58,730 bases of DNA, taken from sequence record SRR20825019_449. One strand, written 5' to 3'. Position numbers and translations under genes: made by a program. Below the pieces are notes generated by a model. That model was not told where the DNA came from. It did no database searches and saw only the letters and a list, made by a program, of their open reading frames with translations. Below are positions 25,019-55,937 of the stretch, piece by piece; position 1 is the first letter of the stretch; each line of letters starts with the position of its first letter.

Positions 25019-25074
25019 ATCAATAAATTCCTGTGCCTTCCCCACCTCAGCATAGGGATACAAAGGGTTTAGAA

Positions 25075-27246
25075 ATGCCAGCTTTCACCACGAAGTATTC
25101 AGATTACTCCGGCACGCGCCATAGCACTCGATACGCTTTCCTGCTCTCACTTCTGACCTCGTCGGCTCTGATCTCCTCCCCCCTTCTTGCTGAAGACATG
25201 AGCGCAGAGGATGATGAGAATATTGAAGAGATCGTCGTTAAAGGCGCCTACACCACCAATGAACTGCTCGATTCGGCTACCGGTCTCGGCCTTTCGCCTC
25301 AGGAAACACCGCAGTCAGTCAGCGTTATGACCTTCCAACGTATTGAAGACCAGGACCTGCGCTCGCTATCTGATATTGTGATAAACGCTGTTGGTGTCTC
25401 CGCGAAAGAGCTGGACAGCACCCGTTATGGCTTCTCCGCGCGTGGTTTTTCGATCCAGAATTATCAGCTTGACGGTGTTCCCCTGGCATGGAGCCCTGGC
25501 GGTGATTCCGGCGAGACCCTACAAGACACCGCGCTGTATGAGCGTATCGAGATTGTGCGCGGGGCCACCGGACTGCTTACCGGTGCCGGTGACCCTTCCG
25601 CCTCCATCAACCTGGTGCGCAAAACGGCAAACAGCCGGAACTTCAAGGGCTTCATCGCGGCGGATGGCGGCAGCTGGAACACCTACGGCATCCTCGCCGA
25701 TGTAGCCACATCGCTGAACAGCGACGGCTCCATCCGTGGTCGCCTCGTCGCACGTTATAGGGAAGGCGATTCGTTCCGCGACTGGGGCAGCGATAAGAAG
25801 ACCGTGCTATACGGTGTAATTGAAGCCGATGTCTCTGACGACCTTCTGCTGCGCGCGGGTGCGAGCTATCAGGATAATTCTCCCCTTGGTACCACATGGG
25901 GTGGTTTGCCGGCCTGGTTTGCTGATGGCAGCCAAGCCAGTTGGGACCGTAAAAAGACCATCGCGCCCGATTGGTCTTTCTGGGCATCAGAGACCAGCAA
26001 TTATTTCGCGACACTTGATTATAATTTCTCCGCTGACTGGCGCGCGAAAGTCAGCTTCAACAGATACGAAACATCGGCAGATCTGAAACTGTTGTATCTA
26101 TACGGTGTGCCAGACCGTGAAACGGGCATCGGTCTTGGCGCCTCCCCCTACCGGGCAGACACCAAAAGCGACCAGAACAGCATCGACTTCCAGATCCAGG
26201 GCGCTTTCTCACTGTTTGGCCGCCGCCACGAGTTGGTATTCGGCGGGCTGCACAGCAAACAATATTCAGAGGCAGGGTATTACGCGGCCAGCAACGTTGC
26301 CCCGATTGGGGATTTTAACGCATGGGATGGGTCGTACACTGAGCCAACATGGTCAACTGACCGTCAAATTGACGGCGACTATGACACTGTGCAAACAGGC
26401 TTTTATGCGGCGTCTCGCCTCAGTTTGACTGATGCGTTCAAGCTGGTTGTGGGGGGCCGCCTGGCGAAATGGAGCCAGCGAGGGCAGCTATACGGCACAG
26501 TGCGCGACTATGGCGACAGCGGTGTGTTCATCCCTTATGCTGGTGCGCTCTATGATGTTTCAGACAATCATACAGTTTACGCCAGCTATACCGAGATTTT
26601 CGAGCCCCAGAACGCGCAAGACAGGAACGGTGACTTCCTCGCCCCGCTCGAAGGTAAAAACTATGAAGTTGGCTTGAAAAGCACTTTCTTTGATGATGCG
26701 CTTCACACCACCGTGTCGTTATTTCTTGTTGAGCAGGATAATCTGGCACAGCCCGACCCGGGCCACACCATTCCGGGCACAATTTTTGAGGCTTCCCGTG
26801 CCGCCAAGGGTACCGAGAGCAAGGGTTTTGAGCTTGAGGTTGTGGGCGAAGTCCTGCCGGGCTGGAACATCAGCACAGGCTATACCCAGTTCAAGGCTGA
26901 GGACGCAGGCGGCGTGGCTGTTAACACATCGCAACCGCGCAAGCTGCTGAAGATATTCACCACCTATTCGGTTAATAAATTCACCCTTGGTGGTGGCGTC
27001 AATTGGGAAGGCCGTAATTATACAGACACGATCAACCCGGTGAGTGGCAATGCTGAACGGTTAGAGCAGGCATCATATGCCCTCGCCAGCCTGATGGCCC
27101 GCTATGACATCAACGAGCAGCTGTCATTGCAGGCCAACGTGGAAAATCTGTTTGATGAAACATATTTCAGCCAGATCGGCTTCTACAGCCAGCTTGCCTA
27201 TGGTGAACCTAGGCGGGTGACCGTCAAAGCCCGCTACACTTTCTAA
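25075..27246 (+). CDS. TonB-dependent siderophore receptor (FhuE/FpvA-like)
   Basis: SATGLGLSPQETPQSVSV, ERIEIVRGATGLLTGAGDPSASINLVRK, NLFDETY, terminal F. Confidence 0.92.
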   Translation: MPAFTTKYSDYSGTRHSTRYAFLLSLLTSSALISSPLLAEDMSAEDDENIEEIVVKGAYTTNELLDSATGLGLSPQETPQSVSVMTFQRIEDQDLRSLSDIVINAVGVSAKELDSTRYGFSARGFSIQNYQLDGVPLAWSPGGDSGETLQDTALYERIEIVRGATGLLTGAGDPSASINLVRKTANSRNFKGFIAADGGSWNTYGILADVATSLNSDGSIRGRLVARYREGDSFRDWGSDKKTVLYGVIEADVSDDLLLRAGASYQDNSPLGTTWGGLPAWFADGSQASWDRKKTIAPDWSFWASETSNYFATLDYNFSADWRAKVSFNRYETSADLKLLYLYGVPDRETGIGLGASPYRADTKSDQNSIDFQIQGAFSLFGRRHELVFGGLHSKQYSEAGYYAASNVAPIGDFNAWDGSYTEPTWSTDRQIDGDYDTVQTGFYAASRLSLTDAFKLVVGGRLAKWSQRGQLYGTVRDYGDSGVFIPYAGALYDVSDNHTVYASYTEIFEPQNAQDRNGDFLAPLEGKNYEVGLKSTFFDDALHTTVSLFLVEQDNLAQPDPGHTIPGTIFEASRAAKGTESKGFELEVVGEVLPGWNISTGYTQFKAEDAGGVAVNTSQPRKLLKIFTTYSVNKFTLGGGVNWEGRNYTDTINPVSGNAERLEQASYALASLMARYDINEQLSLQANVENLFDETYFSQIGFYSQLAYGEPRRVTVKARYTF

Positions 27247-27260
27247 GGCCAGACAACTAG

Positions 27261-27296
27261 AAGCCCGGAGCGAGCGCAATAGCTCGGCCTGGGCTT
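27261..27296 (+). terminator. Hairpin after the siderophore receptor gene
   Basis: AAGCCCGG..CGAGC-loop-GCTCG..CCTGGGCTT; weak U-tract. Confidence 0.45.
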
Positions 27297-27591
27297 ACCT
27301 ACCGCGACCCACCGTCATGTGTAGGAACAATATAGTTTGAAAATTAGGTTCAATTATTTTGAATAAAGTTTGGAAATTAATTCCAACCGCACTCCTCATG
27401 GCGCAGAATAAGTCCACCGAACTCAAAACACAGATCACTACCAATCGCTATTTTCGTCGTTTTCCCAACTAAATTGGTGCCTAGCGAAGAATAAGAGATG
27501 CTGCGCTAGATTAAGCGGTCATCAGCTATTTATACAAGGCGGTCACAATTTTCCCTATCGCTACCGTTCACCAACGATTTACCCAAGAAAA

Positions 27592-27618
27592 TGGAGGTAC
27601 ATCGTACGCCACTTCGTT
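27592..27618 (+). promoter_or_regulatory. ECF-type promoter motif, copy 1
   Basis: TGGAGGT-ACATCGTACGCCACTT-CGTT, 27 nt before the CDS at 27646. Confidence 0.75.
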
Positions 27619-27645
27619 CTAAGACCAGGAAAGAAGGACATACAA

Positions 27646-28731
27646 GTGGCACAACGCATCCAATTCAATTTGCTTCAGGGCTTAATGTTTACACTGTTGG
27701 CGACAGGTAGCAGCTTGGCACAGGATCAAGGCATTCAACCACCCAGCCTTGGCCAGCAGGCGAGCTATAGCGAATACTGGGAACAGCAGTTCCTGTTTGA
27801 CGATGGCACATTCGTCACCAGTCAGTTTCTGATTACCAACCTGCCGATAAGCAAACACCACGGCATCCAGATCGGCACGCTTGTTGGCAACAGCACACAA
27901 GCATATGGCGGACGTGTGATCATCAAGAACGGCCGCCCCCGCGATGGCTGGGGCTTTGAACCAACCAAACAGTCACTATCGATCTTCAGCCACGTTTTGG
28001 CCGGCCAACACCCAGGATATCTGATGCGGCTCGCAAACACCGCTGCAGAGCTGGATGTGTTATTTTCTGCAGGAGAGGACGCCATTGAGCTTGTAGCCCC
28101 TAACGGACCATTTGGGTTACCTCAAATTACACTCTACGCACCTCTATCCCAAGCCTTCGCCCGTTGGCGGCCAGGGCCGGAGATTGGTGGCGACGCCGAA
28201 GCCATTGACTGGATCAAGATCGGTCACGGCCATGGCATTGGCGTTCATGTGCGACAAACCCACGAGCTGCACAAGAGCATCCGCCGCTGGACCCGTATGA
28301 CAGGAACCAAAAGCAGCGCGGGGGTTCCTGTCCCCGTCCTGCACCAATTTGTAACACCACGAGGTGAGACAAGCACCGTTCTGTTGCTGCTATCACTCTC
28401 CTCACCGCCACAGCGATTTGACAACGTCACCCTGATAGAAAAAAAGACCGGCACCACCTGGAACCTTCAAGCCAGCATGGAAGGACAACGGATAATTGGC
28501 ACTGTCGTGATTGACAAACCACTCGATCATTTCATCTTAAAGGACCATTTGTCCGGTATCGAGAAGTTGGTAGCGGGCGCATCAGCGGACATCGACCGGA
28601 CACAAACCATTGCCCGCTACACACTCTCGCTCGAGACAGCAACGGGCACCAAACAGCTCACAGGAGACGCAATTTTCGAAGATGTCATGGTCGGAGAAGG
28701 TCGCAGAAAACGCAACAGGCGTCTACGCTAG
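27646..28731 (+). CDS. Secreted hypothetical protein, possibly AttH/CrtC/Svf1 lipocalin-like beta fold
   Basis: Signal peptide (SSLA-Q); SEYWEQQFLFDDG...SQFLITN; beta-strand-rich; basic tail. Confidence 0.7.
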   Translation: MAQRIQFNLLQGLMFTLLATGSSLAQDQGIQPPSLGQQASYSEYWEQQFLFDDGTFVTSQFLITNLPISKHHGIQIGTLVGNSTQAYGGRVIIKNGRPRDGWGFEPTKQSLSIFSHVLAGQHPGYLMRLANTAAELDVLFSAGEDAIELVAPNGPFGLPQITLYAPLSQAFARWRPGPEIGGDAEAIDWIKIGHGHGIGVHVRQTHELHKSIRRWTRMTGTKSSAGVPVPVLHQFVTPRGETSTVLLLLSLSSPPQRFDNVTLIEKKTGTTWNLQASMEGQRIIGTVVIDKPLDHFILKDHLSGIEKLVAGASADIDRTQTIARYTLSLETATGTKQLTGDAIFEDVMVGEGRRKRNRRLR

Positions 28732-29087
28732 ACGCGCTCAAGAATTTGTGGTGTAGCCCAGCCCGACTTTGATTTGATCACCATCACTGCAGTCCTCCGC
28801 AAGCGGACGCCAGCCGACCAAAACCCGCCAGCTTCCACAAACGGACACGGCCATCAGCCTGTAACGACCCACAAGATCGAGCACGGCTTCAGAAAACCCG
28901 TTTTTGGCTTCCACCCGCAACAAACCAAGCGCTGCAACGCTAACCTATTCCTTGCTGACCCCCTACCAACACTGAGCCACGCTTTTCGACAGCGATTTCG
29001 CGGACCCCGCTGACGCAAAGTCGCCAGGTTTGAAGATGGCGTGGCCTAACGTCGCCTTGACGCGACTCAGAAAATAGGCCGCAAGGG

Positions 29088-31607
29088 TCAGAAACGACGT
29101 TCGAGAAACAGGCCAAAAGTGCGCGGTCGCGGCGGAGTGACCTGATGGCCTTCAAGCACGGTAAAACTATTGCCGAAAGAGAAAGTATTAGCGCGGGTAT
29201 CAGACAGGTTCTGGGCAAACAGACCCATCTTCCAAATATCGTTCGAAACCTGCAAACGGACGTTCAGGATGCCAAAATCGCCCATTTGTGGGGATTCCGC
29301 TTCATTGAAGGTCAACGCGGATTTACCGATATAGGCATAATCCGCGCTAAAGGCGCCGTCCCACTTCGGGCCCAGGGTAAACTGATACAACAGCGCGAGG
29401 CTGGCCGTGTTTTCAGAGATCGCAGGCAACCTGTCACCCTTGACAGCACCAAGGAAGGCATTGTCTTCGAGAAGTTCGGAATCGTTCCAAAAGAAAGATC
29501 CTTTCAGCTCAAGCCCGTCAAAGGGCGAAACCGCGAATTCCAGTTCATAGCCAACATTCTTTGCGTCACCGACGTTGGTGACATAGGGAAAACCGCTGTC
29601 GCCAATCTGGTCAGACTGAATATCATACCAGCGCACATAGAAGGCGGACATGTTGACTGACAGCCGACGGTCAAACCAGTAGGATTTTATTCCAGCTTCA
29701 AAGCTTATGAGGTCGTCGGACAAAAATTCGGTGACCCGACCCGCCGGAAACGGCTCGTCTGGGTCGGCCGCCACAAGAGCCTCTAGCGGCGTATCGATAT
29801 TCAATCCACCCACACGGTATCCGACGCCCACCTGAGCATAGGTTTGCACCTGATCGGACCACGTATATTGAACGGCGACCTTTGGGATCACCTTATTGAT
29901 CCTCTTTTTTCCATTCACTGTCTGACGTTCGTCGTCCAGGACAAATTCTGAAACATAGTCTAACTTGAGTTCATTACGGGAAAAGCGGGCGCCTGCTGTA
30001 AAGCTCAGCTTGTCTGACGCTCGAAAAATTGCCTCGCCGAAAACGGCAATGTCCTCTGTTGTTTCCGTTCTGTCTTCCCAAAGCGCAAGGCGTGCGTCTC
30101 TGATATCGAAAGCCAGCGCGAGTGCCGTATCCTTTGTCTGCAACCGACGAAGAAAATAGAACCCTGCCAACCATTCAAAACGATGCCCGGGGGCAGACTG
30201 CAGACGTGTTTCATGGCTAAAGGTGTCTATATCGTCCCGGGTGAAGTAAGCCACTGCGTTTTCTGGCTGTATCACCTCCAGAAATTCCTCTACTCCTGCA
30301 AAGGAGGATAGGTCATCCATGATGAAAGCGCTTGGTGGTAGATTTGCCAATTCGTCAAAAAACAATAAGCCTTCACTGGCGTCCGTTGTTTCCTTGACCG
30401 TGCGGTCAATAAGAGCTGTGGCACTAGTGAAGTGCAAACTGCCTATTCTGCCCTTGACCGTCATATTCAAATGGATGAAACCATCCTTGTAAGGTTCAGG
30501 CAGCAGGTTAGCGCGCTGGTTGCGCCCCAGCCGATCATCAAAATACTGGGAATCATCATAGTGAATGGTCTGGTAATTGATACTGGCCTCCAGATTCCAG
30601 CGCTCGTTGATTTGCCACCTTAGCGCCGGGCGGATGCCGAAGATGTCCAAGTTATTGGTATTCTTTTCTGACAGCCCGACGTTATCGATATAGCCTTCGC
30701 GCTGTTCGCCATAGCCCGTTACCCGCAAACCAAGCCGACCAGGAATTAGCGGGTGGTTGACCATAAAATCGAGCTGCCCGCCCAGGCCGCCGCCCTTTGT
30801 GCCTGAAAGTGTCGTCCGAACGCGGGCAGATGTGTCATCCACATCCGGTTTTTTGGTGATGACGCGGTACAATCCACCCATTGAACCGGCACCATAAAGT
30901 GTGCCCTGTGGCCCTCGCACCAATTCGATCCGATCTACATCAAACAGGCGTAGATCCGGGTTTGTATCATTCAGATTTACCGGCGTTTCGTCGATATAAA
31001 CACCGACCATCGCCTGAGTACGGTCAGCGAATGGCCCATCAGACAAGCCACGAACAAAAATCTTGTTTCGGCCCGGGCCCAAATTGGTGGTGGAGACGCC
31101 TGCCAGGTGCGGCGCCAAAGACTGAAAGTCATGAACGCCCAGATCATCCAACACGAGCCCTGAAAGCCCTGACACACTGACCGGCAGATCAAATCCTGCT
31201 GCCGGCCGTTTGACCGCTGTAACCACTAGATCTTCTATAAAATCGGCTTGTCTGGCAGCGTGCCTCGCCACTGGAGCCGTAGGCTGCTGCTGGCTCTGGG
31301 GTTGCGCAGGAACGAAAAGCTGAACTGTGCTATCATCCAAGAACCGGTAGTGAATACCGCTGCCGTCAAGAATTGTCCTCAGTGATGCGTTTCTTGAGAT
31401 ATGGCCTTGCGTCCCGCCTGACATCACACCGTCTAGCTTGAGCCCCGAAAAGTCTATCGACAGCCCAGCTTCCTCGGCAAATTCGATCAGCGCGGTTACC
31501 AGCGATTGCGGCGGCACGTCAAAGATCGTCACTTGGGCATGCACTGGAGCATTGGCCAAAGCCCCTAGGATCAGTCCGAAAAGAACGGCGCCCTGCCGTG
31601 CAGCCAT
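29088..31607 (-). CDS. TonB-dependent receptor with N-terminal STN signalling domain (transducer)
   Basis: FDVPPQSLVTALIEFAEEAG...LDGSGIHYRF STN domain; RGPQGTLYGAGSMGG; PRTFG...F. Confidence 0.92.
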   Translation of the reverse strand: MAARQGAVLFGLILGALANAPVHAQVTIFDVPPQSLVTALIEFAEEAGLSIDFSGLKLDGVMSGGTQGHISRNASLRTILDGSGIHYRFLDDSTVQLFVPAQPQSQQQPTAPVARHAARQADFIEDLVVTAVKRPAAGFDLPVSVSGLSGLVLDDLGVHDFQSLAPHLAGVSTTNLGPGRNKIFVRGLSDGPFADRTQAMVGVYIDETPVNLNDTNPDLRLFDVDRIELVRGPQGTLYGAGSMGGLYRVITKKPDVDDTSARVRTTLSGTKGGGLGGQLDFMVNHPLIPGRLGLRVTGYGEQREGYIDNVGLSEKNTNNLDIFGIRPALRWQINERWNLEASINYQTIHYDDSQYFDDRLGRNQRANLLPEPYKDGFIHLNMTVKGRIGSLHFTSATALIDRTVKETTDASEGLLFFDELANLPPSAFIMDDLSSFAGVEEFLEVIQPENAVAYFTRDDIDTFSHETRLQSAPGHRFEWLAGFYFLRRLQTKDTALALAFDIRDARLALWEDRTETTEDIAVFGEAIFRASDKLSFTAGARFSRNELKLDYVSEFVLDDERQTVNGKKRINKVIPKVAVQYTWSDQVQTYAQVGVGYRVGGLNIDTPLEALVAADPDEPFPAGRVTEFLSDDLISFEAGIKSYWFDRRLSVNMSAFYVRWYDIQSDQIGDSGFPYVTNVGDAKNVGYELEFAVSPFDGLELKGSFFWNDSELLEDNAFLGAVKGDRLPAISENTASLALLYQFTLGPKWDGAFSADYAYIGKSALTFNEAESPQMGDFGILNVRLQVSNDIWKMGLFAQNLSDTRANTFSFGNSFTVLEGHQVTPPRPRTFGLFLERRF

Positions 31608-31616
31608 ACGCCCCGC

Positions 31617-32636
31617 CTACTGGTTGGCTGTAAAGATAATTTCGAAATCAGATACATCCAGATCCAGATCCATGAACCCGGCCAATTGCCGTGCCATCTG
31701 CTCTGCCGTCGAAACCTGAATTACACCAGAAAATCGAATATTGAGATCCGCTCCCGAAGCAAGTCGGACGGATACAGTTGGGAACAGCGCATCAATTCTG
31801 GAGACAACATCAATCAAAGCAGCATCGCGGAACGTTAGCACGCCCCTGGCCCACGCCCCTACAGTTTCGGCTGGCACATGTGCCATCACCGGTTCCGTCT
31901 CGTTTTCATCGAAAATCGCTACAACACCTGGCTCGATCAACAGGGGTGCCTGCGTTGCACTTGCCTCATGGTCAAGCGGCTCAACAGCCACCAGACCATG
32001 GTTCACCGCCACCCGGTCGAAACCCTCTGCCCGGATCACTTCGAACCGGGTCCCCACCACTTTCACTTGTCGATTGGCAGTTCGCACATAAAACGGCCGC
32101 GTCGGGTTCGGCACCACATCAAAGAAGGCACGACCTGCCTCAAGGGTCACCACACGCATATCGTCAGATATGGCGACCGTCATACCACTACCGCCAAACA
32201 GCGACACCCGCGAACCATCAGCCAGCTCGACGGTGCGTACGCTCGCACCTTCCGCCACATACTGGTGCGGCAAGGATGGTTCATCGTAAAAACCGGTGCC
32301 GGGGAAAATAACACCGAAAAGAAGTGCCATTGCCGCAGCAGCAACTGTCGCCAAACGCGGCCAGCCAAGGTTTGCGAACAGGCCATGCCACTTTGGTTTG
32401 CTCTCGACTGTAAAATCCTGAGCAAAGGTAGTTCGCACCACGCCCTCAAGGGCATCAGCCGAACGCATGGCCAAAGCCACCCGCTCGTACGCATCGGCGT
32501 GCGCCGGGTCTTCAAGCAGCCACTCCATATGGCGCTCGATATCCACGTCGGTCACGTCGCCGGATGCCAAACGGGCATACCAATCAGCGGCTGCATCCAG
32601 CACAGCGGGTGGCGTTATGTCATGTCCACTGCTCAT
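31617..32636 (-). CDS. FecR family anti-sigma factor/membrane sensor
   Basis: AAADWYARL, WLLEDPAHADAY, TM helix, LADGSRV, VVGTRFEV, AWARG. Confidence 0.93.
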   Translation of the reverse strand: MSSGHDITPPAVLDAAADWYARLASGDVTDVDIERHMEWLLEDPAHADAYERVALAMRSADALEGVVRTTFAQDFTVESKPKWHGLFANLGWPRLATVAAAAMALLFGVIFPGTGFYDEPSLPHQYVAEGASVRTVELADGSRVSLFGGSGMTVAISDDMRVVTLEAGRAFFDVVPNPTRPFYVRTANRQVKVVGTRFEVIRAEGFDRVAVNHGLVAVEPLDHEASATQAPLLIEPGVVAIFDENETEPVMAHVPAETVGAWARGVLTFRDAALIDVVSRIDALFPTVSVRLASGADLNIRFSGVIQVSTAEQMARQLAGFMDLDLDVSDFEIIFTANQ

Positions 32637-32662
32637 GGTTTCATTCTCTCATACATCACTAT

Positions 32663-32689
32663 AACGGAATGAAGGACGGAAGCCCTCCA
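32663..32689 (-). promoter_or_regulatory. ECF-type promoter motif, copy 2
   Basis: Minus strand TGGAGGG-CTTCCGTCCTTCATTC-CGTT, 26 nt before the fecR-like gene. Confidence 0.75.
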
Positions 32690-32718
32690 ACCGACATTCA
32701 TCACTGTGTTGCGCGGGT

Positions 32719-33291
32719 TCATTGTCGCTGGCTCCTCGAAATGGCCAGCGCCTTAATGGCCCGGATCATATGTTTCTCGATCGTACTCTTGGGAATACCG
32801 GTCCGCTCGGAGATTTCAGCGTGGCTCAACTCCTCGAACCGGTGCAGCAAAAATATCTGCCTAGTCTTCTTCGGCAACTCTTCCAGAGCCTGCATCGCCG
32901 CGGCCAGCTCCTGCTTGGCCACCAGCGCACGCGAAGGGTCTACAGACACCGACGCACTCATATCATCATCCGCGCCAGCCGTATTAGCCTTGCCCCAAGC
33001 GTCCTCTCGCGCTGCGCGGGCGTTGCGCTCGCGCACCTTATCGATCACGAGGTTAGCAATGATACGAGCCAGAAGGGCCTCTGGTGAAGCAGTATTAGCC
33101 ACATCATACTTATTCTGGAACCTGATGAAGGCCTCTTGAACAATTTCCTCGGCTTCGGCATCATCCTTCAGGCGTGCTGCCGCAAAACGAATCAACGGAC
33201 CCCGCTGCAGGCGAAAAAGTTCCTCCAGTGACCTGCCCCGTACCGTGCTCGCCTGCGGTTTGTCTGTTTTTAATTTCGCCCAATCAAACAT
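32719..33291 (-). CDS. FecI-like ECF sigma factor
   Basis: EAEEIVQEAF, IIANLVID, LPKKTRQIFLLHRFEELSHAEI...STIEKHM. Confidence 0.93.
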   Translation of the reverse strand: MFDWAKLKTDKPQASTVRGRSLEELFRLQRGPLIRFAAARLKDDAEAEEIVQEAFIRFQNKYDVANTASPEALLARIIANLVIDKVRERNARAAREDAWGKANTAGADDDMSASVSVDPSRALVAKQELAAAMQALEELPKKTRQIFLLHRFEELSHAEISERTGIPKSTIEKHMIRAIKALAISRSQRQ

Positions 33292-33363
33292 GCCGGAACC
33301 TTAGCCGATTGCCCCCTGCCAGAAAAGCACCTGAATGCCATTACAAAAATATTTCAGAAAGAT

Positions 33364-33390
33364 TGGAGGTACATAGCCGGCAGGTCCGTT
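33364..33390 (+). promoter_or_regulatory. ECF-type promoter motif, copy 3
   Basis: TGGAGGT-ACATAGCCGGCAGGTC-CGTT, 38 nt before ino1. Confidence 0.75.
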
Positions 33391-33428
33391 TCCCTGACGA
33401 AGCAAATAAAAAGGCCTGGAGTATCCTT

Positions 33429-34574
33429 ATGACAATGCCGAAAAATACCATCAATGTCGCCATCGTGGGCTTAGGGAACTGTGCGAGCTCCCTGGTACAG
33501 GGCGTCTATTATTATGGCACTGAGAAAAACGCAGATGCCTCAGGGTTAATGCATGAAAGCCTAGGCGGCTACCTGCCGTCCGACATCCGCATAACTGCAG
33601 CGTTTGACATTGACCAGCGCAAGGTTGGTAAGGACGTATCCAAAGCCATTTTTGAGGCTCCCAATTGCACAGCCGTCTTCCAGGCGGACATTCCCCATCA
33701 GGGCGTCAAGGTGAAAATGGGCCGTGTTCTGGATGGCTATTCAGATCATATGTCAACTTACCCCGACAAGCGCCGATTCATGCCCCTTGACGCGCCCGAG
33801 CCAACCAAACACGATATCGTCCGCGAATTAAAAGAAGCAAAGGTGGATGTTCTGATGAACTATCTGCCAGTGGGCAGCCAGAAGGCGACCGAATTCTATG
33901 CTGAATGCGCGCTCGAGGCCGGTGTCGCCTTCGTCAACAACATCCCTGTTTTTATCGCTAGCGATCCGGTGTGGGCGGAACGGTTTGAAAAGGCCGGCCT
34001 GCCGATCATCGGCGACGACATCAAGGCCCAGTTGGGCGCCACCATCGTGCACCGTGTCCTGACCGACCTGTTCGCCAAGCGCGGCGTGGCCATGGACCGC
34101 ACGTACCAGTTGAACACGGGCGGTAATACAGACTTCCTAAACATGAAAAACCAGGAACGACTGGAATCCAAAAAGACTTCGAAAACCGAGGCAGTTCAGT
34201 CGGTCGCGGCGCACCGGATCGAAGACGAAAATATCCATGTGGGCCCCAGCGACTATGTGGCCTGGCAGAATGACAACAAGGTTTGTTTCCTGCGCATGGA
34301 AGGCCGTCTGTTCGGCGATGTGCCGATGAACCTTGAACTCAGGCTGTCTGTTGAAGATTCGCCTAACTCGGCTGGTGTCGCCATTGATACCGTCCGCTGT
34401 GCCAAGCTGGCACTCGACCGCGGTAGGGCCGGTGTGATTGAAGGGCCTTCGGCCTTCTTCTGCAAGCACCCGCCCATACAGCACACCGACGATGTGGCGC
34501 GCACCATGACAGAGGCCTTCATCGCTGGGTCTCATATTGAACCGGCGACCAAAAGAATTGCGGCGGCAGAATAA
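33429..34574 (+). CDS. ino1: myo-inositol-1-phosphate synthase (MIPS)
   Basis: GLGNCASSLVQG, YLPVGS, GDDIKAQLGAT, YQLNTGGNTDFLNM, DSPNSAG. Confidence 0.96.
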   Translation: MTMPKNTINVAIVGLGNCASSLVQGVYYYGTEKNADASGLMHESLGGYLPSDIRITAAFDIDQRKVGKDVSKAIFEAPNCTAVFQADIPHQGVKVKMGRVLDGYSDHMSTYPDKRRFMPLDAPEPTKHDIVRELKEAKVDVLMNYLPVGSQKATEFYAECALEAGVAFVNNIPVFIASDPVWAERFEKAGLPIIGDDIKAQLGATIVHRVLTDLFAKRGVAMDRTYQLNTGGNTDFLNMKNQERLESKKTSKTEAVQSVAAHRIEDENIHVGPSDYVAWQNDNKVCFLRMEGRLFGDVPMNLELRLSVEDSPNSAGVAIDTVRCAKLALDRGRAGVIEGPSAFFCKHPPIQHTDDVARTMTEAFIAGSHIEPATKRIAAAE

Positions 34575-34586
34575 CCGTCCCCTGGC

Positions 34587-34740
34587 TGAAGGTATTCGCC
34601 TTACCGCAATGCCCCGGCCGCTCCACCCCTCCCATTAGGCGGTCAGGGCCCTATCCCCTTGTTTGACGGTATTCGCCTCACGCCTTGCCGCAACACCCCG
34701 GCCGCTCCAATCTTCCCATTGAGCGGTCGGGACCTACCCC
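34587..34740 (+). repeat. Two imperfect tandem repeats of about 75 bp, each with a hairpin
   Basis: Units 34587-34658 and 34664-34740 share TGA.GGTATTCGCCT..CCGCAA..CCCCGGCCGCTCCA...TCCCATT..GCGGTC.GG..CTA.CCC. Confidence 0.8.
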
Positions 34741-34758
34741 AAGAAGGAAAAAAGCGCC

Positions 34759-35661
34759 ATGGTCCAAACACCGATAGACGCATCATCCCGGGGCTCTGTA
34801 CTGGAACCGCATCAGTATGGGCGACCAAGTGCGATCGAAGATGCATCCAATCGTTATCTGATCCACCCCCTGTCAGACCTTGTGGTGACCGTTGCCCACA
34901 GGATGGGGCTTTCTCCCAACACAGTCTCATTCATGGGGCTCGCCTGCGGTTTTTTGGCGGCCTTCCTATATTATGACCTGCCTCAGCAGGTCCCAGTTAT
35001 CGGTGGTTTTGTTGCCATGGTTGCCTGGCACGTCCTTGACGGGGCCGACGGACGCCTGGCGCGTCTCACGCGCCGGTCCAGTGCTTTTGGCCGCGTCATC
35101 GACGGCATCTGTGATCATCTTGTGTTTGGCGCAGTCTATATCGCGCTGGCCTTGCACTTGATGGAAACAGGCTATTCTGCACATGTCTGGTGGCTTGTCG
35201 TCGGCGCAGGCCTGTCACACGCGGTACAGGCCGCCGGCTATGAAGAACGACGTCAGAAATACCAGCGCAGGCTGAAGGGGTTAACACGCGCAACGACAGA
35301 ACAAGACATGTTGGTGGTGAACGGCAAAAAATCCACGCTAGCAGCCCTCTATGATGCAGCACAAAAGCTGGTAAGCGGCAACCGCTCAGTGCTTGACGAC
35401 AGGCTCCGCAACCTCCAGACGTCACCGAACGGAAAAAGGTATGCGGCTCACATCATAAGCCAAACTGTACCCATGGTACGCGCTTGGGGCGTCTTGAACG
35501 CCAACAACCGTACCTTCCTGATCTTCGCTTTTTCCTTGTTCGGGCAGCCGGCTTTCTATTTCGCCTTCGAGTTGGTGATCTTCAATTTGGTCTTGGTGAT
35601 CCTGATGATCGCCGAATGGCGTCAGGAAAAGGCGCTGGCGGCTCAATCGCTGCCAAACTGA
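34759..35661 (+). CDS. CDP-alcohol phosphotransferase (DIPPS/PI-synthase-like)
   Basis: SPNTVS and signature LDGADGRLARLTRRSSAFGRVIDGICD. Confidence 0.92.
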   Translation: MVQTPIDASSRGSVLEPHQYGRPSAIEDASNRYLIHPLSDLVVTVAHRMGLSPNTVSFMGLACGFLAAFLYYDLPQQVPVIGGFVAMVAWHVLDGADGRLARLTRRSSAFGRVIDGICDHLVFGAVYIALALHLMETGYSAHVWWLVVGAGLSHAVQAAGYEERRQKYQRRLKGLTRATTEQDMLVVNGKKSTLAALYDAAQKLVSGNRSVLDDRLRNLQTSPNGKRYAAHIISQTVPMVRAWGVLNANNRTFLIFAFSLFGQPAFYFAFELVIFNLVLVILMIAEWRQEKALAAQSLPN

Positions 35662-35662
35662 G

Positions 35663-37126
35663 ATGGGCGCAATCGACGACATAAAAGACATCCTGCGCGG
35701 CGCACTGGCATCTCTTGGCGGCTTTGGTGGTCGCATGCTGGCCCGGCTGGTGCTGATGCTGGTTGCGGGCCACCTCTATGGCGCGGCATCACTGGGGCTT
35801 TTAGGCCAAGTGGCGGCGCTCACAGAAATCATCGCGGCGGCGGCAACCATGGGGCTCAAACGTACTTTACTCGATCTCCTCAGCGGCAAGGAAGCCGAGG
35901 AACAGGCACTCAAAATCATCAAAGAGGCGTTGATGGCAGCCCTGCTGGCGGCCTTTGTGGGCGCCTTCTTGTTGGCTGCCTTGTGGCCCCTCCTCTTTCC
36001 TGCCCCTTCCATGCCCTTGCTGCTGCTGGGCGCCATACCCTCTATCGTCATCGCGGAGGTTGGCGGCGCCGCGATCCGGTTCAAGCGCATCATTCGCTGG
36101 GAAGTGATTGCACGCTGCGTGTTTGAGCCCTGGGGCTTCCTGCTTGGCGCGTTGACCTTTTATTATACTGGCCTGACGGAGACCGGCCTAGTCGCGGCAT
36201 ACGCTTTCTCCTGCGTGATGGCGGCATGTGGCATACTGATCGGCCTTCACAAGGTATTTGGTGCCCGCGCCCTCATTGGGGCTACATTCAACCCGACTGC
36301 CCTTTACCGCATACCGCTCTATAGCCTTCCTGCTGGGATCACAGACATGGGCGTCATGATGTTTCGCCGTCTTGATATCCTTATCCTGTCAACCGTCGCA
36401 GGTCACGACACCACCGGCATCTATTATATGGCGCAACAGATTGTCACCATTCCACATAAGATCCATCAGTTGTTTGATCCCATGATAACCCCTGTGATTG
36501 CCCGGCTACATCATGGGCTAAAACGTGACGTGATTGCCGCTAAGCTAGCGGGCTTCTGCCGCTGGACCTTCACACTGCAGCTGGCGCTCACGGTGCCCAT
36601 CGCCATATTCGGTGACCACCTAATGGCTCTGTTCGGCGATCAGTTCGCCTCAGGTGCAATCGTTCTGGCCTTCCTTTTGTTTGCTGAATTGATGGACGGC
36701 AGTTTTGCACTGACGGAAACCACCCTTCTGTTCGCCCGGCCAGGCCTGCCGCCCAGATTGGTGTCCACCGCGCTTGCAATCGAGATACTGACTGTTGCCG
36801 GACTGGCGTCGCTTTGGGGAGAAACGGGGGCCGCCATTGCCTTCGCCATTGCCATGTCGAGCCTGGCCCTGGCCCGACTGTTTTTTATCAAACAGCAGCT
36901 CGGCATCAGGATCATAGGGGTCCCATTTATGCCACCGATTATCATTGCATTCCTTGTTGGGGGGGGGCTGTTGGCTTTCAGGCTCTATGTCCCTGCCTTT
37001 GCTGCCGACGTTTTTGGCCTTCTTCTTCCTGCCGCCATTTGCTGTTTTCTGCTGTTGGTCAGACTGAAAGGGTTGACGCCCTTGGACAGGGAAGTGGTCA
37101 AGCAATTGCGCTCTGGTTCAAGCTGA
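35663..37126 (+). CDS. Wzx/MOP-family flippase
   Basis: About 14 TM helices; RRLDILILS...GIYYMAQQI, LFGDQF, GETGAAIA. Confidence 0.8.
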   Translation: MGAIDDIKDILRGALASLGGFGGRMLARLVLMLVAGHLYGAASLGLLGQVAALTEIIAAAATMGLKRTLLDLLSGKEAEEQALKIIKEALMAALLAAFVGAFLLAALWPLLFPAPSMPLLLLGAIPSIVIAEVGGAAIRFKRIIRWEVIARCVFEPWGFLLGALTFYYTGLTETGLVAAYAFSCVMAACGILIGLHKVFGARALIGATFNPTALYRIPLYSLPAGITDMGVMMFRRLDILILSTVAGHDTTGIYYMAQQIVTIPHKIHQLFDPMITPVIARLHHGLKRDVIAAKLAGFCRWTFTLQLALTVPIAIFGDHLMALFGDQFASGAIVLAFLLFAELMDGSFALTETTLLFARPGLPPRLVSTALAIEILTVAGLASLWGETGAAIAFAIAMSSLALARLFFIKQQLGIRIIGVPFMPPIIIAFLVGGGLLAFRLYVPAFAADVFGLLLPAAICCFLLLVRLKGLTPLDREVVKQLRSGSS

Positions 37127-37835
37127 TCCAGTCTGACGCCATCCGGTGCATCGCTGGGCTATCAACATCAATCCAGAAAGCGTCTCCAATATCTACACCA
37201 AGAGCACGGCCGTTCTGCGCCAACATGGCCATGCCACCGGATATTGAGAAATCTCCCGTTTCACGGCCTGTCTCACTGATGGCATCAAAAAGCGCCGGGC
37301 CTGCACAGAAAACCCCTGTATCGAAGGCTGTGTAAACGGAAATCTCTTTTCCAATCTCCCTAATGAAAGGGCCCTTCATGCAGACCTTGGTCACATCGTG
37401 CAAGTCGACAAAAGAATTATTCAGGCGCATATCCACCGCAAGCGCAACATCAGTTTTCATAAGCGGGTGGGCCAAAAGCCTATGATACAGCTCAGCCGAC
37501 ACGATATGATCACACATGGCAAGACAGAACCGCTTGCCAGCAAGTGCTTCCCGCGCGGCCAGAACCGACAGCCCATTCGACCGCCGGTAATCGGGGTTAT
37601 GCACCAAGTCGATCTCCCACCCCCGTTGCTGGCGCAAAACCGAAAGGCTTGCTGCAAGGATGTCCGCCTTATACCCCCCGACGACGGTGGCCCGCTTCAA
37701 GCCAGCCTCAAAGGCGGCCTCCAGGGCGTATTCGATCAACGGCTTTCCATGTACCTCCACGAGAGGTTTAAGGTTGCCCTTTGCCCTCAGGCGCGTCCCC
37801 ATGCCAGCGGCCACTATCAGAAGATCCTCAACCAT
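37098..37835 (-). CDS. NTP transferase, IPCT-like (CTP:inositol-1-phosphate cytidylyltransferase)
   Basis: VAAGMGTRL...KPL, NGLSV, MCDH, DVTKV, DTGVF, WIDVD as in the IPCT/LicC family. Confidence 0.85.
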   Translation of the reverse strand: MVEDLLIVAAGMGTRLRAKGNLKPLVEVHGKPLIEYALEAAFEAGLKRATVVGGYKADILAASLSVLRQQRGWEIDLVHNPDYRRSNGLSVLAAREALAGKRFCLAMCDHIVSAELYHRLLAHPLMKTDVALAVDMRLNNSFVDLHDVTKVCMKGPFIREIGKEISVYTAFDTGVFCAGPALFDAISETGRETGDFSISGGMAMLAQNGRALGVDIGDAFWIDVDSPAMHRMASDWISLNQSAIA

Positions 37836-40236
37836 AAACTGTCTTTCTTTGTTTGGCGCTTTGTAAAAGTTGCAACAACACCGGCAGCAAAACCCAGGTC
37901 ATCAATAGACACATGCCGAAGCCGATCAACGCCAGATAACCCATCGACCGAAGGCCGCCCATGGACGCCGTAATCAGCCCGCCAAACCCCAGAAGCGTCG
38001 TGAAGGTCGTCACAATGGCCGCCCGACCGGTTGTCGCCATGACCGTTCGAACTTCGTCGCGTCCTTCGGTGAAGCGTTCCACAATATGGATAGCATTGTC
38101 GACGGAGATACCAATCAAGGATGGCAGGATCACCATATTGATGATCGACAGCTTCAGCCCCACAAGCGCCATAATGCCAAGGGTAAGGATTAGTCCAAAG
38201 GCCGTGGGCGCCAGAATAACACATGTCGCCTTCAGTGAGCGGCAAAAACCGGCCACAGCCGCCAAGGTCACCAGCCCAACCAGCAAAACGGCTTTGATCG
38301 CGTCCGCCTTCATCAGCGCCAGCATTTCCACAAAGATAAACCCCTCTGACGCCGGGTGATAGGTCTTTCCATCAACTGTAAAGCTGGCGACATCGTCATA
38401 AAACTGGCGGGCAAGATCAGCATCATTCATTGTCACCGAGTTGTAGATATAAACCAGATAGCCCGGTTTTCTCTCGTTGCCCAAAAAGACACGGCGCATG
38501 CCCTGTGGCAGGTCCTTCACATCCAGCATGCCAATCTGCAGATATTTGGCCTTGTCCTGTAACGATATCGGCAGTGGTCCACTTTCCTCGATTTTCGACC
38601 ACATGCGGTTGATCACTTCAAGTCGTGCGGCCTGGCCTTCTCTGTCTGGCACGAAATTGCGGACACTGGTGATTTTCGCCACGGTCGGTGTCCGGGTATC
38701 CTTGCGATTGTAGGCTTCGAAATAGTCTTCAATGGCCTTGACCTCTTCAAGCGTATCAACCACCAGAACGGCCCGGTCATGACCGCCTTTGAAGATGCGT
38801 TTCGACCGCTCAGTAGCCCATTGGTGCTCTGCCGACTGTGCCGCCTGGATATTTTTGAAGTTTCGCTCGAATGACAGGTGCGGCACCAGGAAGCCCGCTG
38901 CCACAAGCGGCGGAAGAAACAACCCAAGTGCCCGGCGGGGCCCTAGCGCAAACCGCCCGCCCATAACACCACTGCCAGCGACGCCGCTTGGGCGCCATGT
39001 CATAAAAGGGGCCATAACGGACAGCAAGGCCGGAAACACGGTATACATTGACAGGTAAATCAGCAGCATGCCGCTGCCCGCGATGAAGCCAAACTCTCGG
39101 AACGCGCGGAATTCTGTCAGCAGCAGGGCCAAAAAACCTGCCGCTGTTGTGATACCCGCGATCAATGACGCCCGCCCCGTATGGGCCAAAAGGACTGCGA
39201 TTGCTTCCCTGTGGCTGTCACCTAGCCCCCGCGCTTCCGCATAGCGGCTGAAATTGTGAATTCCGAAATCAATGCCCAACCCAAACAGGATCAGCGCCAA
39301 AAAAATGGTGATCAGGTTCAGCCCCCCAATAACCACTGCCGTTAATCCAATCGTCCATATAATGCCAAACGCTAGTGGGATAATGATCAACGGCAGCGCC
39401 ATCAGGCGACGATAATGAAGCAACAGAAGAAGCATAATCAGCGACACAGAACTGCCAAGGCCGATCTTCACGTCATGCATCACGGCGTCAAATTGCGCTA
39501 CTTTGTTGCGAACCCTGCCCGCAATCCCGACTTTAAGCCCACTGCCTGATGCATTCAATTCAAGGGCCTGAATGATGGCAGCAATATCGCCAATCATAGT
39601 CTTGGCACCAGCCAACCCTTGATATCCAGCTTTGGGCCATATTACGAGCGCCTGGCTGCGTCCATCGTCTGAGGCAAATCGCCGCTCGGTCTCCATCGGA
39701 GCTAGAAGTTCGCTGGCAGGAACCCCTTTCTTCTCACGGCTTGAAACTCGGATATCCTGCCCCACCAATGAGATAGTGAGAGGTATGCCGGTCGACTTCT
39801 CGATATTGCGAGTGACATTAGCCAGAATCTCTTCTTCCAGTCTGGCTTCAACCTGCTCCAGTTCAGCGACATCAAGCTGCAACAGCTTGTGGCGCTCAAG
39901 GACGGAAATATCTTCAAAATACTGAGCGCTGTCGGTCCATGGCAGGCGACGGGTAATTGCCTCCAGAATGAACAATCCCTCCTCAGCCCGACGCGGATCA
40001 TCGCTTTCGACAATCACTTGAATAGCAGCAAAGCTGCCAATTTTTTCCATGGCGTCATTCAGTGTGATCACGCTTGGGGCATCTTCCGGCATCAGGGCCT
40101 CAAGCTTGGTCGAAACCTTGAGCGTACCCGCTGCTGACATGGCAAGCACAGATGCCATGAGCGCCAGCGCCAAAACCAACCAACGCCCTGCCACAACCAG
40201 CCCGGCTGCTTTCATACTCCAGTGTCCCACGCTCAC
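37828..40236 (-). CDS. MMPL/HpnN-like RND lipid exporter
   Basis: Two repeats with GLGIDFGIH and GISVDNAIH, TT..GF motifs; 1+5 TM halves. Confidence 0.9.
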   Translation of the reverse strand: MSVGHWSMKAAGLVVAGRWLVLALALMASVLAMSAAGTLKVSTKLEALMPEDAPSVITLNDAMEKIGSFAAIQVIVESDDPRRAEEGLFILEAITRRLPWTDSAQYFEDISVLERHKLLQLDVAELEQVEARLEEEILANVTRNIEKSTGIPLTISLVGQDIRVSSREKKGVPASELLAPMETERRFASDDGRSQALVIWPKAGYQGLAGAKTMIGDIAAIIQALELNASGSGLKVGIAGRVRNKVAQFDAVMHDVKIGLGSSVSLIMLLLLLHYRRLMALPLIIIPLAFGIIWTIGLTAVVIGGLNLITIFLALILFGLGIDFGIHNFSRYAEARGLGDSHREAIAVLLAHTGRASLIAGITTAAGFLALLLTEFRAFREFGFIAGSGMLLIYLSMYTVFPALLSVMAPFMTWRPSGVAGSGVMGGRFALGPRRALGLFLPPLVAAGFLVPHLSFERNFKNIQAAQSAEHQWATERSKRIFKGGHDRAVLVVDTLEEVKAIEDYFEAYNRKDTRTPTVAKITSVRNFVPDREGQAARLEVINRMWSKIEESGPLPISLQDKAKYLQIGMLDVKDLPQGMRRVFLGNERKPGYLVYIYNSVTMNDADLARQFYDDVASFTVDGKTYHPASEGFIFVEMLALMKADAIKAVLLVGLVTLAAVAGFCRSLKATCVILAPTAFGLILTLGIMALVGLKLSIINMVILPSLIGISVDNAIHIVERFTEGRDEVRTVMATTGRAAIVTTFTTLLGFGGLITASMGGLRSMGYLALIGFGMCLLMTWVLLPVLLQLLQSAKQRKTVYG

Positions 40237-40265
40237 TCCACATTTTCACCCGCTTACAGGGTAAT

Positions 40266-40292
40266 AACGGAGCGCCACCTAAGCCACCTCCA
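40266..40292 (-). promoter_or_regulatory. ECF-type promoter motif, copy 4
   Basis: Minus strand TGGAGGT-GGCTTAGGTGGCGCTC-CGTT, 29 nt before the MMPL gene. Confidence 0.75.
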
Positions 40293-40513
40293 GTAAAACC
40301 ACCTTGTCCACGTTTGGTGATGGCGTGACCGCCAAAGTGATCGCTCTGAATGGATGCTTGGGTTCCAAGTTTGATGAGGTACTCATGTTGGAAGAACAGT
40401 TTCACGATCTGTCTCACTAGCACTGAAGCAGAACAGCTGGTGCAACCCGCGGCCACATAATCGCCGTCGCTACCTTCTTATATTGCATATAGAATTAGTA
40501 GTGCCTTGCTATG

Positions 40514-40529
40514 TTAAGTTTGGCTTCAG
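40514..40529 (+). promoter_or_regulatory. Putative OmpR/PmrA-type direct-repeat box
   Basis: TTAAG-N6-TTCAG upstream of the response regulator gene. Confidence 0.55.
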
Positions 40530-40551
40530 GCAAATTTGAGATATTGAAACG

Positions 40552-41214
40552 ATGGCACGTTTATTATTGGTAGAGGATGACGTTCAGCTTGGGGAATCCC
40601 TTAAAGAAGGGCTTGAGATGGATGTCTATCACGTTGATTGGTTGCGAAATGGCGCGGATGCGCTTTTGGCGCTGGAAACCAATGATTTTGACATCGCCGT
40701 GTTGGATCTGGGCCTGCCGGGGATGGACGGGGTAACGTTACTACAGGCCGCCCGCAAGAATGGTGACAGCACCCCCATTCTTATTCTCACTGCGCGAGAC
40801 ACTGTTGCAGATAAAATAAGAGGGCTGGATTCAGGGGCGGACGATTATCTAGTAAAACCCTTTGATATAGATGAATTATCCGCACGGCTTCGCTCACTCT
40901 TGCGGCGCTCGTCAGGGCGGGCAAGTCCTGCACTTGAAGTGGGCGCAATATCATTGGACCCCGCAACGGGCGATATTACTATAGATGCCATTCCTACTAT
41001 TTTGTCCGGCCGAGAACGGGCCTTGTTGCAAATTCTGATGGAGAACGCCGGACGTTTTGTTTCCAAAAGTAGATTGGAGAACAGCCTTTATGGCTGGGAT
41101 TCTGAGGTCGAAAGTAATACCGTTGAGGTATATATCTCCAAATTGCGAAAGAAAGTTGGACGCGCGAGTATTACCACAATGCGCGGCGTCGGCTACAGAA
41201 TGAATAAAGCGTAA
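40552..41214 (+). CDS. OmpR-family response regulator (QseB/PmrA-like)
   Basis: LLVEDD, LDLGLP, GADDYLVKPF, SNTVEVYISKLRKK. Confidence 0.93.
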   Translation: MARLLLVEDDVQLGESLKEGLEMDVYHVDWLRNGADALLALETNDFDIAVLDLGLPGMDGVTLLQAARKNGDSTPILILTARDTVADKIRGLDSGADDYLVKPFDIDELSARLRSLLRRSSGRASPALEVGAISLDPATGDITIDAIPTILSGRERALLQILMENAGRFVSKSRLENSLYGWDSEVESNTVEVYISKLRKKVGRASITTMRGVGYRMNKA

Positions 41215-41215
41215 C

Positions 41216-51094: not shown

Positions 51095-51122
51095 TTATTT
51101 CCGTAGAGAATGAACGCTGCTG

Positions 51123-51138
51123 CTTAAATGAAACTGAA
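51123..51138 (-). promoter_or_regulatory. Direct-repeat box
   Basis: Minus strand TTCAG-N6-TTAAG upstream of the MFP-RND operon. Confidence 0.55.
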
Positions 51139-51167
51139 AAAGTAGCGGGCATTGAGCCCGCTACTTT
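51139..51167 (-). terminator. Intrinsic terminator after the TonB receptor gene
   Basis: Perfect 12-bp stem AAAGTAGCGGGC/GCCCGCTACTTT with a U-tract on the minus strand. Confidence 0.8.
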
Positions 51168-51216
51168 ATAGGCGCCATGGGCGACTACTCTGGGGGAATA
51201 CTCGTTCTACTTTATA

Positions 51217-55588: not shown

Positions 55589-55937
55589 CCTCTAAAGATG
55601 GATCGACGTTGCAAGAGGGAGCGGGGCGTTTTGTTACAGCCGCTGTAGGTCGCTCCAGCTTCCATGTAGGTCCTTGGTTCGGGCATCGCCATCTCTGGTT
55701 TAGGACGCTATACGCTTCTTCAAATGCCAGACGCGGCACTCGTACCCGTTGAAAATGCTAGGAAAAACAGGACCTTGCAGCCACTACAAAGGTGTCACCT
55801 CTCCAAAACCCGGAAGTCTGGTGGTTACCCCTGGAGTTTATCCAAAGTTGGAACAGGTTTTTCGCGAATAATTTTGGAGGACGATCACACACTGCACCGT
55901 TGAGCCAACAATAGTATTTGGCAAAACAGGAAAAATT

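Follow-up and report, generated by a model that had tools for sequence, protein, structure and literature searches.

A 58,730-nucleotide stretch of DNA from sequence record SRR20825019_449 (the window, meaning the whole stretch analysed) contains a gene cluster in which an extracytoplasmic function (ECF) sigma factor, a FecR-type regulator and a TonB-dependent transducer are encoded among genes predicted to serve inositol-lipid synthesis and lipid export. A bipartite motif, TGGAGG-N17-CGTT, stands in front of the units of this cluster at a fixed position and in a fixed orientation, is conserved in relatives with its spacing unchanged, and co-occurs with the sigma factor module. The motif is almost certainly a conserved functional cis-element. 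We infer a promoter role for it, with TGGAGG as the -35 element and c-T-C-CGT-T (core CGT) as the -10 element, and the protein that would recognize it is likely to be the local FecI-like ECF sigma factor.

Motif Copies in the Window

The pattern TGGAGGK-N16-CGTT has exactly four matches in the 58.7-kb window, compared with a mean of 0.04 in 100 dinucleotide shuffles, none of which contained four or more copies. All four lie on the coding strand of the gene that follows and inside 12.7 kb (Table 1), gaps being counted from the base after CGTT to the base before the start codon. The first-pass annotation of this DNA had placed four copies 26-38 nt upstream, on the coding strand, of a secreted-protein gene, fecR, ino1 and an MMPL gene, and both the pattern count and the positions of the open reading frames (ORFs) bear this out. 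The copy before fecR falls within the 82-nt gap between the stop codon of the sigma gene and the start of fecR, and the copy before ino1 is divergent from the sigma gene. A position weight matrix (PWM) trained on 48 sites of other genomes, with the window sites excluded, gave these four sites 21-25 bits, against maxima of 10-17.6 bits in 10 shuffles. No copy was found in the window upstream of the sigma gene or of the neighbouring receptor gene at 25033, as had also been noted earlier.

A short degenerate pattern may match four times by chance, and chance matches do occur in G001, the nearest of the genomes compared, which is 4.2 Mb in size and shares 97% of the words sampled from the window. 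There, TGGAGGK-N16-CGTT occurs six times, with four copies in the cluster and two outside it, and the same pattern read backwards as a control matches four times; GGAGG-N15-YYCGTY has 11 matches versus 10 for its control. All nine non-cluster matches of either pattern lie inside long ORFs, coincide with a ribosome-binding site or are oriented away from any gene, and they were rejected as additional regulon members, bearing in mind that such strict patterns would miss degenerate sites. The genome-wide scan that had been proposed as a check, when run in G001, therefore recovered the four cluster sites, and beyond the cluster it returned matches at background level only. As an explanation of the four copies in the window, however, chance has a negligible probability, in view of the shuffles, of the clustering within so short a segment and of the position kept in 17 genomes.

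Conservation of the Motif in Relatives

Of the 32 genomes of the genus, 16 have a sigma factor orthologue with 56-73% identity, and such orthologues also occur in a further genus of the same family; a single 41%-identical orthologue was found in another family (61 relatives searched), and across the order 19 of 251 genomes possess one. The whole cluster is syntenic in relatives. The window and 17 syntenic loci of up to 20 kb each, with sigma factors 41-73% identical, were used as a footprint set, in which a strict core, GGAGG-N17-CGT, was counted when it lay on the coding strand at most 250 nt upstream of a gene. The core precedes fecR (17/18 loci), ino1 (15/17), the secreted-protein gene (13/15) and the MMPL gene (9/14). 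It is absent upstream of the sigma gene (0/18), the transducer gene (0/16) and the CDP-alcohol transferase gene (0/17), and it occurs before the MOP gene in one of 16 loci (L041, where the MOP gene stands alone) and before the NTP transferase gene in two of 15, both in genomes without the MMPL gene. Near-misses were also observed. At the same position, ino1 is preceded by GGcGG or GGAtG in L029 and L031 (one mismatch each), the MMPL gene by a copy with a 16-nt spacer in L026 and by one with a decayed -35 element in L029, and fecR by TGGgG in L041.

To avoid circularity, all dyads consisting of a 4-mer, a gap of N14-20 and a 3-mer were counted without a motif prior. GAGG-N17-CGT was the commonest, in 55 of 67 target upstream regions, the first half of the top dyad being GGAG and GAGG and the second half CGT. 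The top dyads of 82 control regions are the reverse complement of GAGG-N17-CGT (15/82), originating from the spacer shared by the sigma gene and ino1. MAFFT alignments of the upstream regions, likewise made without a motif prior, kept only the TGGAGG and (T.)CGTT blocks; the ino1 alignment additionally kept a T-run 5' of the -35 element, a ribosome-binding GGAG and, some 11 nt past CGTT, a GCA. The spacer is 17 nt long in 55 of the 67 regions; one region has a spacer of 16 nt, and none has any other of the lengths from 13 to 21 examined. Spacer and flanks diverge among relatives, and the spacer sequence carries no information. Because GGAGG is fixed by the search pattern, its invariance in the 53 unique sites is not independent evidence; the conserved positions that were free to vary are the T before GGAGG (46/53), the T after CGT (44/53) and the TC before CGT (41/53 and 38/53). 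The median distance from site to start codon is 22-53 nt.

An element acting in the RNA 5' leader is a further conceivable explanation, in which GGAGG would either serve a leader peptide as its ribosome-binding site or form a Shine-Dalgarno-like or anti-anti-Shine-Dalgarno box that pairs with the CUCC preceding CGU. GGAGG is indeed a Shine-Dalgarno core, GGAG is complementary to the CTCC often found before the GT of the second box, and GCTC is the commonest set of four bases before CGT. However, 11 of the 53 sites have T instead of C before CGT (TTCGT), which breaks the pairing, and GGAGG never compensates; the four leaders of the window fold differently, with z-scores from -1.7 to +0.75; no Rfam family reaches the gathering score in the whole window; and the real ribosome-binding sites lie further downstream, for example the conserved GGAG upstream of ino1. 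Moreover, no start codon is conserved after GGAGG, as the spacer carries no information. An RNA element, leader peptide or hairpin was therefore rejected, and this explanation is regarded as very improbable.

Co-occurrence with the Sigma Factor Module

The genomes of the genus were grouped as sigma-bearing or sigma-less by the orthologue search, independently of the motif. In the 16 sigma-bearing genomes, TGGAGG-N16-YCGTY has 107 matches versus 54 for the reversed control, and in the 16 genomes without the sigma factor it has 53 versus 48. In the ino1 clusters of other families of the order, which have a different arrangement and lack this sigma factor, the motif is upstream in none of 10 loci. 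Among 80 ino1 loci from public genomes, the motif adjoins ino1 only in three, whose sigma factors are at least 57% identical; the other 77 have no site within 100 nt upstream, and one of them has a site about 207 nt upstream.

It might nevertheless be supposed that a different alternative sigma factor, whose gene lies elsewhere and is co-inherited with the cluster, reads the promoter, and that the local sigma factor has other targets. Other ECF sigma factors do exist, since a first look at G001 gave 23 sigma-like candidate stretches, and it is sequence comparison that links the local sigma factor to the motif sites. Nevertheless, in all 17 relatives motif sites are found on either side of the local sigma gene, the motif is missing wherever the local sigma factor is missing, and the second sigma-like gene of the window is found in none of the 17 syntenic loci, so that a distant sigma factor is an unlikely reader of the element. 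The other regulator genes near the cluster, encoding a response regulator, a kinase and a LytTR protein, are equally absent from these 17 loci, as is the neighbouring receptor gene.

The G017 genome includes a 14-kb locus (L168) with the MMPL, NTP transferase, MOP, CDP-alcohol transferase and ino1 genes, in which no sigma-FecR-transducer module was seen. No motif site occurs in these 14 kb, and the region upstream of ino1 resembles a decayed motif; the locus may represent a natural loss of the regulator.

A different organization is seen in marine alphaproteobacteria (L093, L091, L094 and L097), where the ino1, CDP-alcohol transferase, MOP, MMPL and NTP transferase genes form a single co-directional operon. 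In L093 the operon is followed by a 40%-identical sigma-FecR-transducer set without TGGAGG-N17-CGT, and L093 and L091 have a different conserved block upstream of ino1.

Probable Recognition by the Local Sigma Factor

The element has the anatomy of an ECF promoter, namely two boxes, a fixed spacing of 16-17 nt, a CGT-containing -10 element, here found as the second half of the top dyad, and a short leader. Matches to a sigma-70-like consensus number six in 27200-40700 against 7.7 expected, and none of them is located in the motif-bearing intergenic regions. A conserved bipartite element near a start codon could equally be the operator of a DNA-binding transcription factor, whether activator or repressor, and a response regulator and a kinase are encoded next to the cluster. 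The two halves of the motif, however, form neither a direct nor an inverted repeat, they always point in the direction of the gene that follows, and their spacing is fixed at 17 nt. Furthermore, the transcription-factor genes mentioned above are not conserved with the cluster, and a separate core promoter for such a factor was not seen in these intergenic regions. An operator is accordingly considered about as improbable as recognition by a distant sigma factor.

Several observations weigh against promoter recognition by the local sigma factor. Most ECF -35 elements contain an AAC core, and the proposed -35 element, TGGAGG, does not. PMC7776599 describes the promoters of FecI-like sigma factors as hard to predict and suggests that these factors have weak -35 stringency, with which an invariant -35 element fits badly. 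The MMPL gene is without a strict site in 5 of 14 loci, and the relatives are kin, so that the locus counts are not independent events. The G017 genome is 76% complete, with a contig end near the cluster. The distant sigma-FecR pairs of L093 (40% identical) and G121 (36%), both located close to ino1 clusters, have no GGAGG-N16-18-CGT, and no alternative shared motif was seen in them on brief inspection; therefore, sigma factor and motif are traceable together only within one lineage plus G045. Lastly, the fifth site described below reaches only 12.7 bits with the PWM, which is inside the shuffle range. With these points taken into account, a promoter read by the local sigma factor is still the favoured interpretation.

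A Probable Fifth Copy and Further Motif-Preceded Genes

A fifth copy, 15 kb from the cluster, precedes the gene of a second TonB-dependent receptor. It falls outside the TGGAGGK pattern because its seventh base is A, and it is probably a weak member of the regulon. Orthologues of the second receptor (78% identical) were found in three other genomes, all of them sigma-bearing, and the strict core stands before the gene in all four sigma-bearing genomes (the window, L032, L033 and L086) and in all three cases within the footprint set. In L032 and L033 the second receptor gene is located inside the cluster, occupying the place of the MMPL gene, and a 48%-identical orthologue in a sigma-less genome (L087) has no motif. 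The first-pass annotation had held that the four copies define and delimit the system, which is not tenable given the fifth, weaker copy and the additional motif-preceded genes of relatives. Its view that the motif unites signalling, biosynthetic, export and secreted-protein units is strongly supported by comparative conservation and co-occurrence, and only the limit to four units has to be given up.

The additional genes preceded by the motif in relatives encode MipA-family outer-membrane proteins (4 loci), Exo_endo_phos phosphoesterases (four genomes, two remote from the cluster), a TolC-like OEP, an LptF/G permease, a GT4 glycosyltransferase, a second CDP-alcohol transferase-like protein, an OMP beta-barrel protein, a beta-lactamase-family hydrolase and an RTX/serralysin-like protein. 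What these genes have in common is a link to the envelope and its lipids. Extra sites in L026, L027/L028 and L039 are followed by short ORFs (about 130 aa) that are mutually unrelated and belong to no family, and these ORFs were not counted as genes.

Well-placed motifs far from the cluster were observed in G006 (L170-L173) and G008 (L174), where they precede Exo_endo_phos, OMP beta-barrel, beta-lactamase-family and RTX/serralysin-like genes. These remote motifs suggest a larger regulon in some species. The Exo_endo_phos orthologue of G001 has no motif, in contrast to its motif-preceded counterparts in other genomes. About 100-250 nt into this orthologue (L178), a tandem 12-nt repeat (GATTCCGCCACA-like) is present in several copies; given its location towards the 5' end of the gene, the repeat would give the protein a repetitive N-terminal stretch.

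Genes of the Cluster

The features of the window are listed in Table 1. The closest NCBIfam models of the sigma factor, TIGR02985, PRK12527 and FecI, are all below their cut-offs, and its placement as FecI-like follows from gene context only. The transducer gene is downstream of fecR in one transcription unit. Residues ~20-100 of the transducer match the signalling domains of solved structures, namely HasR (E 8e-8), PupA (3e-5), FpvA (5e-4) and FecA (1e-3), and the Pfam STN match is weak (E 0.042). The sigma-FecR-transducer module is a true, complete cell-surface-signalling set.

Table 1. Positions of the motif copies and of the genes in and around the cluster (window coordinates).
Feature	Position	Strand	Remarks
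Motif 1, TGGAGGT-N16-CGTT	27592..27618	+	27 nt 5' of GTG 27646 of secreted-protein gene; PWM 21.8 bits
Motif 2	32663..32689	-	26 nt 5' of fecR ATG 32636; PWM 25.4 bits
Motif 3	33364..33390	+	38 nt 5' of ino1 ATG 33429; PWM 21.3 bits
Motif 4	40266..40292	-	29 nt 5' of GTG 40236 of MMPL gene; PWM 23.1 bits
Motif 5, TGGAGGA-N16-CGTT	55875..55901	+	36 nt 5' of ORF 55938-58316; probable, weaker
ECF sigma factor, FecI-like by gene context	32719-33291	-	Pfam Sigma70_r2, Sigma70_r4_2, Sigma70_ECF
FecR-type sigma regulator (anti-sigma)	31617-32636	-	Pfam DUF4880, FecR; NCBIfam FecR E 2e-20, below cut-off
TonB-dependent transducer (N-terminal signalling domain, plug, barrel)	29088-31607	-	Pfam Plug, TonB_dep_Rec_b-barrel
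Myo-inositol-1-phosphate synthase (ino1, MIPS)	33429-34574	+	Pfam, NCBIfam; first gene of ino1 operon
CDP-alcohol phosphatidyltransferase	34759-35661	+	ino1 operon; NCBIfam matches below cut-off
MOP/Wzx-like flippase-type membrane protein	35663-37126	+	ino1 operon; Pfam, NCBIfam
NTP transferase resembling inositol-1-phosphate cytidylyltransferase half of IPCT/DIPPS	37098-37835	-	Below cut-off; follows MMPL gene
MMPL/RND lipid-exporter-like protein	37828-40236	-	Best matches HpnN, BstA (hopanoid, sterol lipid transporters), below cut-offs
Secreted protein, 361 aa	27646-28731	+	No Pfam or NCBIfam family
Second TonB-dependent receptor	55938-58316	+	Pfam; N-terminal CarboxypepD_reg, no signalling domain detected
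Remnant of MipA-family outer-membrane gene	28744-29067	-	Between secreted-protein gene and end of transducer gene
Second sigma-like protein, 298 aa	23377-24273	-	Sigma-70 r2/r4 with C-terminal extension
Response regulator and kinase	40552-42679		Adjoin cluster
Segment between cluster and motif 5	46758-55029		AcrB-type RND pump with HlyD partner, and the two genes below
TonB receptor	51217-53445
Alginate-export-family porin	53692-55029

Genes for MIPS, a cytidylyltransferase-like protein and a CDP-alcohol phosphatidyltransferase are encoded together, which is a feature of the putative CDP-inositol route. Because all NCBIfam matches of the CDP-alcohol transferase and of the NTP transferase are below cut-off, the substrates given for these two enzymes are putative. 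A HAD domain was found by Pfam in none of the 13 proteins of 25033-43616.

The secreted protein has a signal-peptide-like N-terminus and a basic C-terminal tail in an alignment of 10 orthologues. Its AF2 model (mean pLDDT 77.4) was compared with the PDB by Foldseek, giving matches (E 2e-10, TM ~0.5) to 7e22, 7e5t, 2ich (AttH), 7a0q and 9g4c. These structures are double beta-barrels, including AttH, fungal Diels-Alderases, kievitone hydratase and 25-phosphosteroid lyase, and the protein-atlas leads (Svf1, CrtC and Diels-Alderase clusters) are concordant. AttH-like double beta-barrels hold hydrophobic ligands, and from its modelled fold the secreted protein probably binds or modifies a lipid or another hydrophobic ligand.

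Over the C-terminal 117 residues of MipA from L026, the MipA-family remnant is 28% identical; it appears to be truncated, and no motif precedes it. Four relatives have an intact MipA gene, preceded by a motif of its own, at the corresponding position. The second sigma-like protein appears to be an ECF sigma factor with a fused domain, and its gene adjoins an MFS transporter gene. Of the genes listed for the segment between the cluster and the fifth motif, none is preceded by a motif copy.

Proposed Regulation and Its Significance

In the proposed scheme, the sigma gene, which has no motif copy, would be transcribed from another promoter, and FecR would hold the sigma factor until the transducer binds a ligand from outside. 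The freed sigma factor would then direct RNA polymerase to at least four promoters, probably five. By turning on fecR and the transducer gene, it would establish a feedback loop like that of hasS in the Has system. It would also drive the ino1, CDP-alcohol transferase and flippase-like genes, the genes of the HpnN-like MMPL exporter and of the cytidylyltransferase, the gene of the secreted AttH-fold protein and, more weakly, the gene of the second TonB receptor. The output would be an inositol phospholipid made via CDP-inositol and delivered to the outer membrane. Taken as a whole, it is a tentative suggestion, rather less probable than the promoter assignment, that surface signalling switches on a remodelling of the outer membrane, with an inositol phospholipid made by the CDP-inositol route, its flipping, HpnN-like RND export and periplasmic handling by the AttH-fold protein all controlled from TGGAGG-N17-CGTT by a FecI-clade sigma factor; in some relatives the lipid would probably be glycosylated by the GT4 enzyme.

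FecI-like sigma factors constitute the largest ECF clade, and their promoters are poorly known. According to PMC3817407, FecI-like groups were excluded from promoter modelling, and thus from surveys looking upstream of sigma genes, because they are not autoregulated. In PMC7776599, FecI-like members are over-represented among the sigma factors without promoter predictions, weak -35 stringency being suspected, and PMC7826278 lists them as ECF239-243, linked to iron or carbohydrate uptake. Against this published picture, an invariant TGGAGG -35 element and a lipid-biosynthetic cargo are unusual. No prior description of a TGGAGG -35 element or of lipid cargo was found in the literature, in a search whose scope left out most subscription journals and the supplements of ECF papers, which may list FecI-like motifs.

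With four to seven well-conserved putative target promoters in each genome, this lineage yields a clean recognition sequence that has an unusual -35 element. If the assignment is correct, it would be a rare case of a FecI-like sigma factor with a stringent -35 element and a readable multi-promoter regulon. The regulon would tie surface signalling, normally a device for iron uptake, to a rare bacterial trait, the synthesis of inositol lipids, and to lipid export; if the remodelling suggested above does take place, this would be a first instance in which cell-surface signalling governs the lipid composition of the envelope. The regulon would also provide a regulatory handle on the unproven CDP-inositol pathway, which overproduction of the sigma factor should turn on.

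Comparison with Known Systems

The module shares with FecA-FecR-FecI of Escherichia coli an ECF sigma factor, a FecR-type regulator (DUF4880, FecR) and a TonB-dependent transducer with a signalling domain. According to PMC9249621, fecIR is not preceded by its own target promoter, and the sigma gene studied here similarly lacks a motif of its own, a sequence argument for absent autoregulation. Unlike the Fec system, which activates an iron-carrier transport operon, the present module has several promoters per genome, and its targets would be inositol-lipid synthesis and lipid export. No gene for iron-carrier uptake is among the cargo, which comprises MIPS, the CDP-alcohol transferase, the NTP transferase, the MMPL protein and the AttH-fold protein. 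The best match to a Fur box before the sigma gene has 10-12 of 19 positions, the background level of the window, when a 19-nt consensus of the E. coli type is applied to this alphaproteobacterial host. At the fecA promoter, point mutations in the -35 element have a far smaller effect than mutations in the -10 element (PMC9249621), whereas the -35 element here is invariant.

In HasR-HasS-HasI of Serratia marcescens, according to the same source, the anti-sigma gene is under the control of the sigma factor and the sigma gene is not autoregulated. The motif between the sigma gene and fecR corresponds to this arrangement, and the N-terminus of the transducer best matches the signalling domain of HasR. 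The cargo here, however, is unrelated to haem. In the PvdS/FpvI-FpvR-FpvA system of Pseudomonas aeruginosa, a surface-signalling sigma factor turns on a receptor together with a biosynthetic pathway, whose product is a siderophore, by way of one short promoter box that carries CGT in its -10 element. Activation of a pathway and a receptor via a short box with a CGT-containing -10 element would be common to both systems, whereas the box itself differs, the product here would most likely be a membrane lipid, and no sign of iron control was seen with the E. coli-type Fur consensus.

Canonical ECF promoters consist of a GGAAC-type -35 element, a 16-17 nt spacer and a CGT-type -10 element. The present motif resembles them in its bipartite structure, its fixed spacing of 16-17 nt, its CGT -10 core and its location near the start codon on the coding strand, and it differs in its TGGAGG -35 element without an AAC core and in not being upstream of the sigma gene. 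Spacers of 16-18 nt were used for ECF promoters in PMC7776599.

With respect to the cargo, the nearest counterpart is the putative CDP-inositol cluster of Bacteroides vulgatus and Prevotella, for which an unproven, Kennedy-like route to phosphatidylinositol was proposed (PMC9246714). Both clusters encode MIPS, an NTP transferase and a CDP-alcohol phosphatidyltransferase together, and in both the pathway is putative. The present cluster differs in having no HAD hydrolase among its scanned proteins, in the addition of the flippase-like, HpnN-like RND exporter and AttH-fold genes, in its wiring to an ECF sigma factor and in its alphaproteobacterial host.

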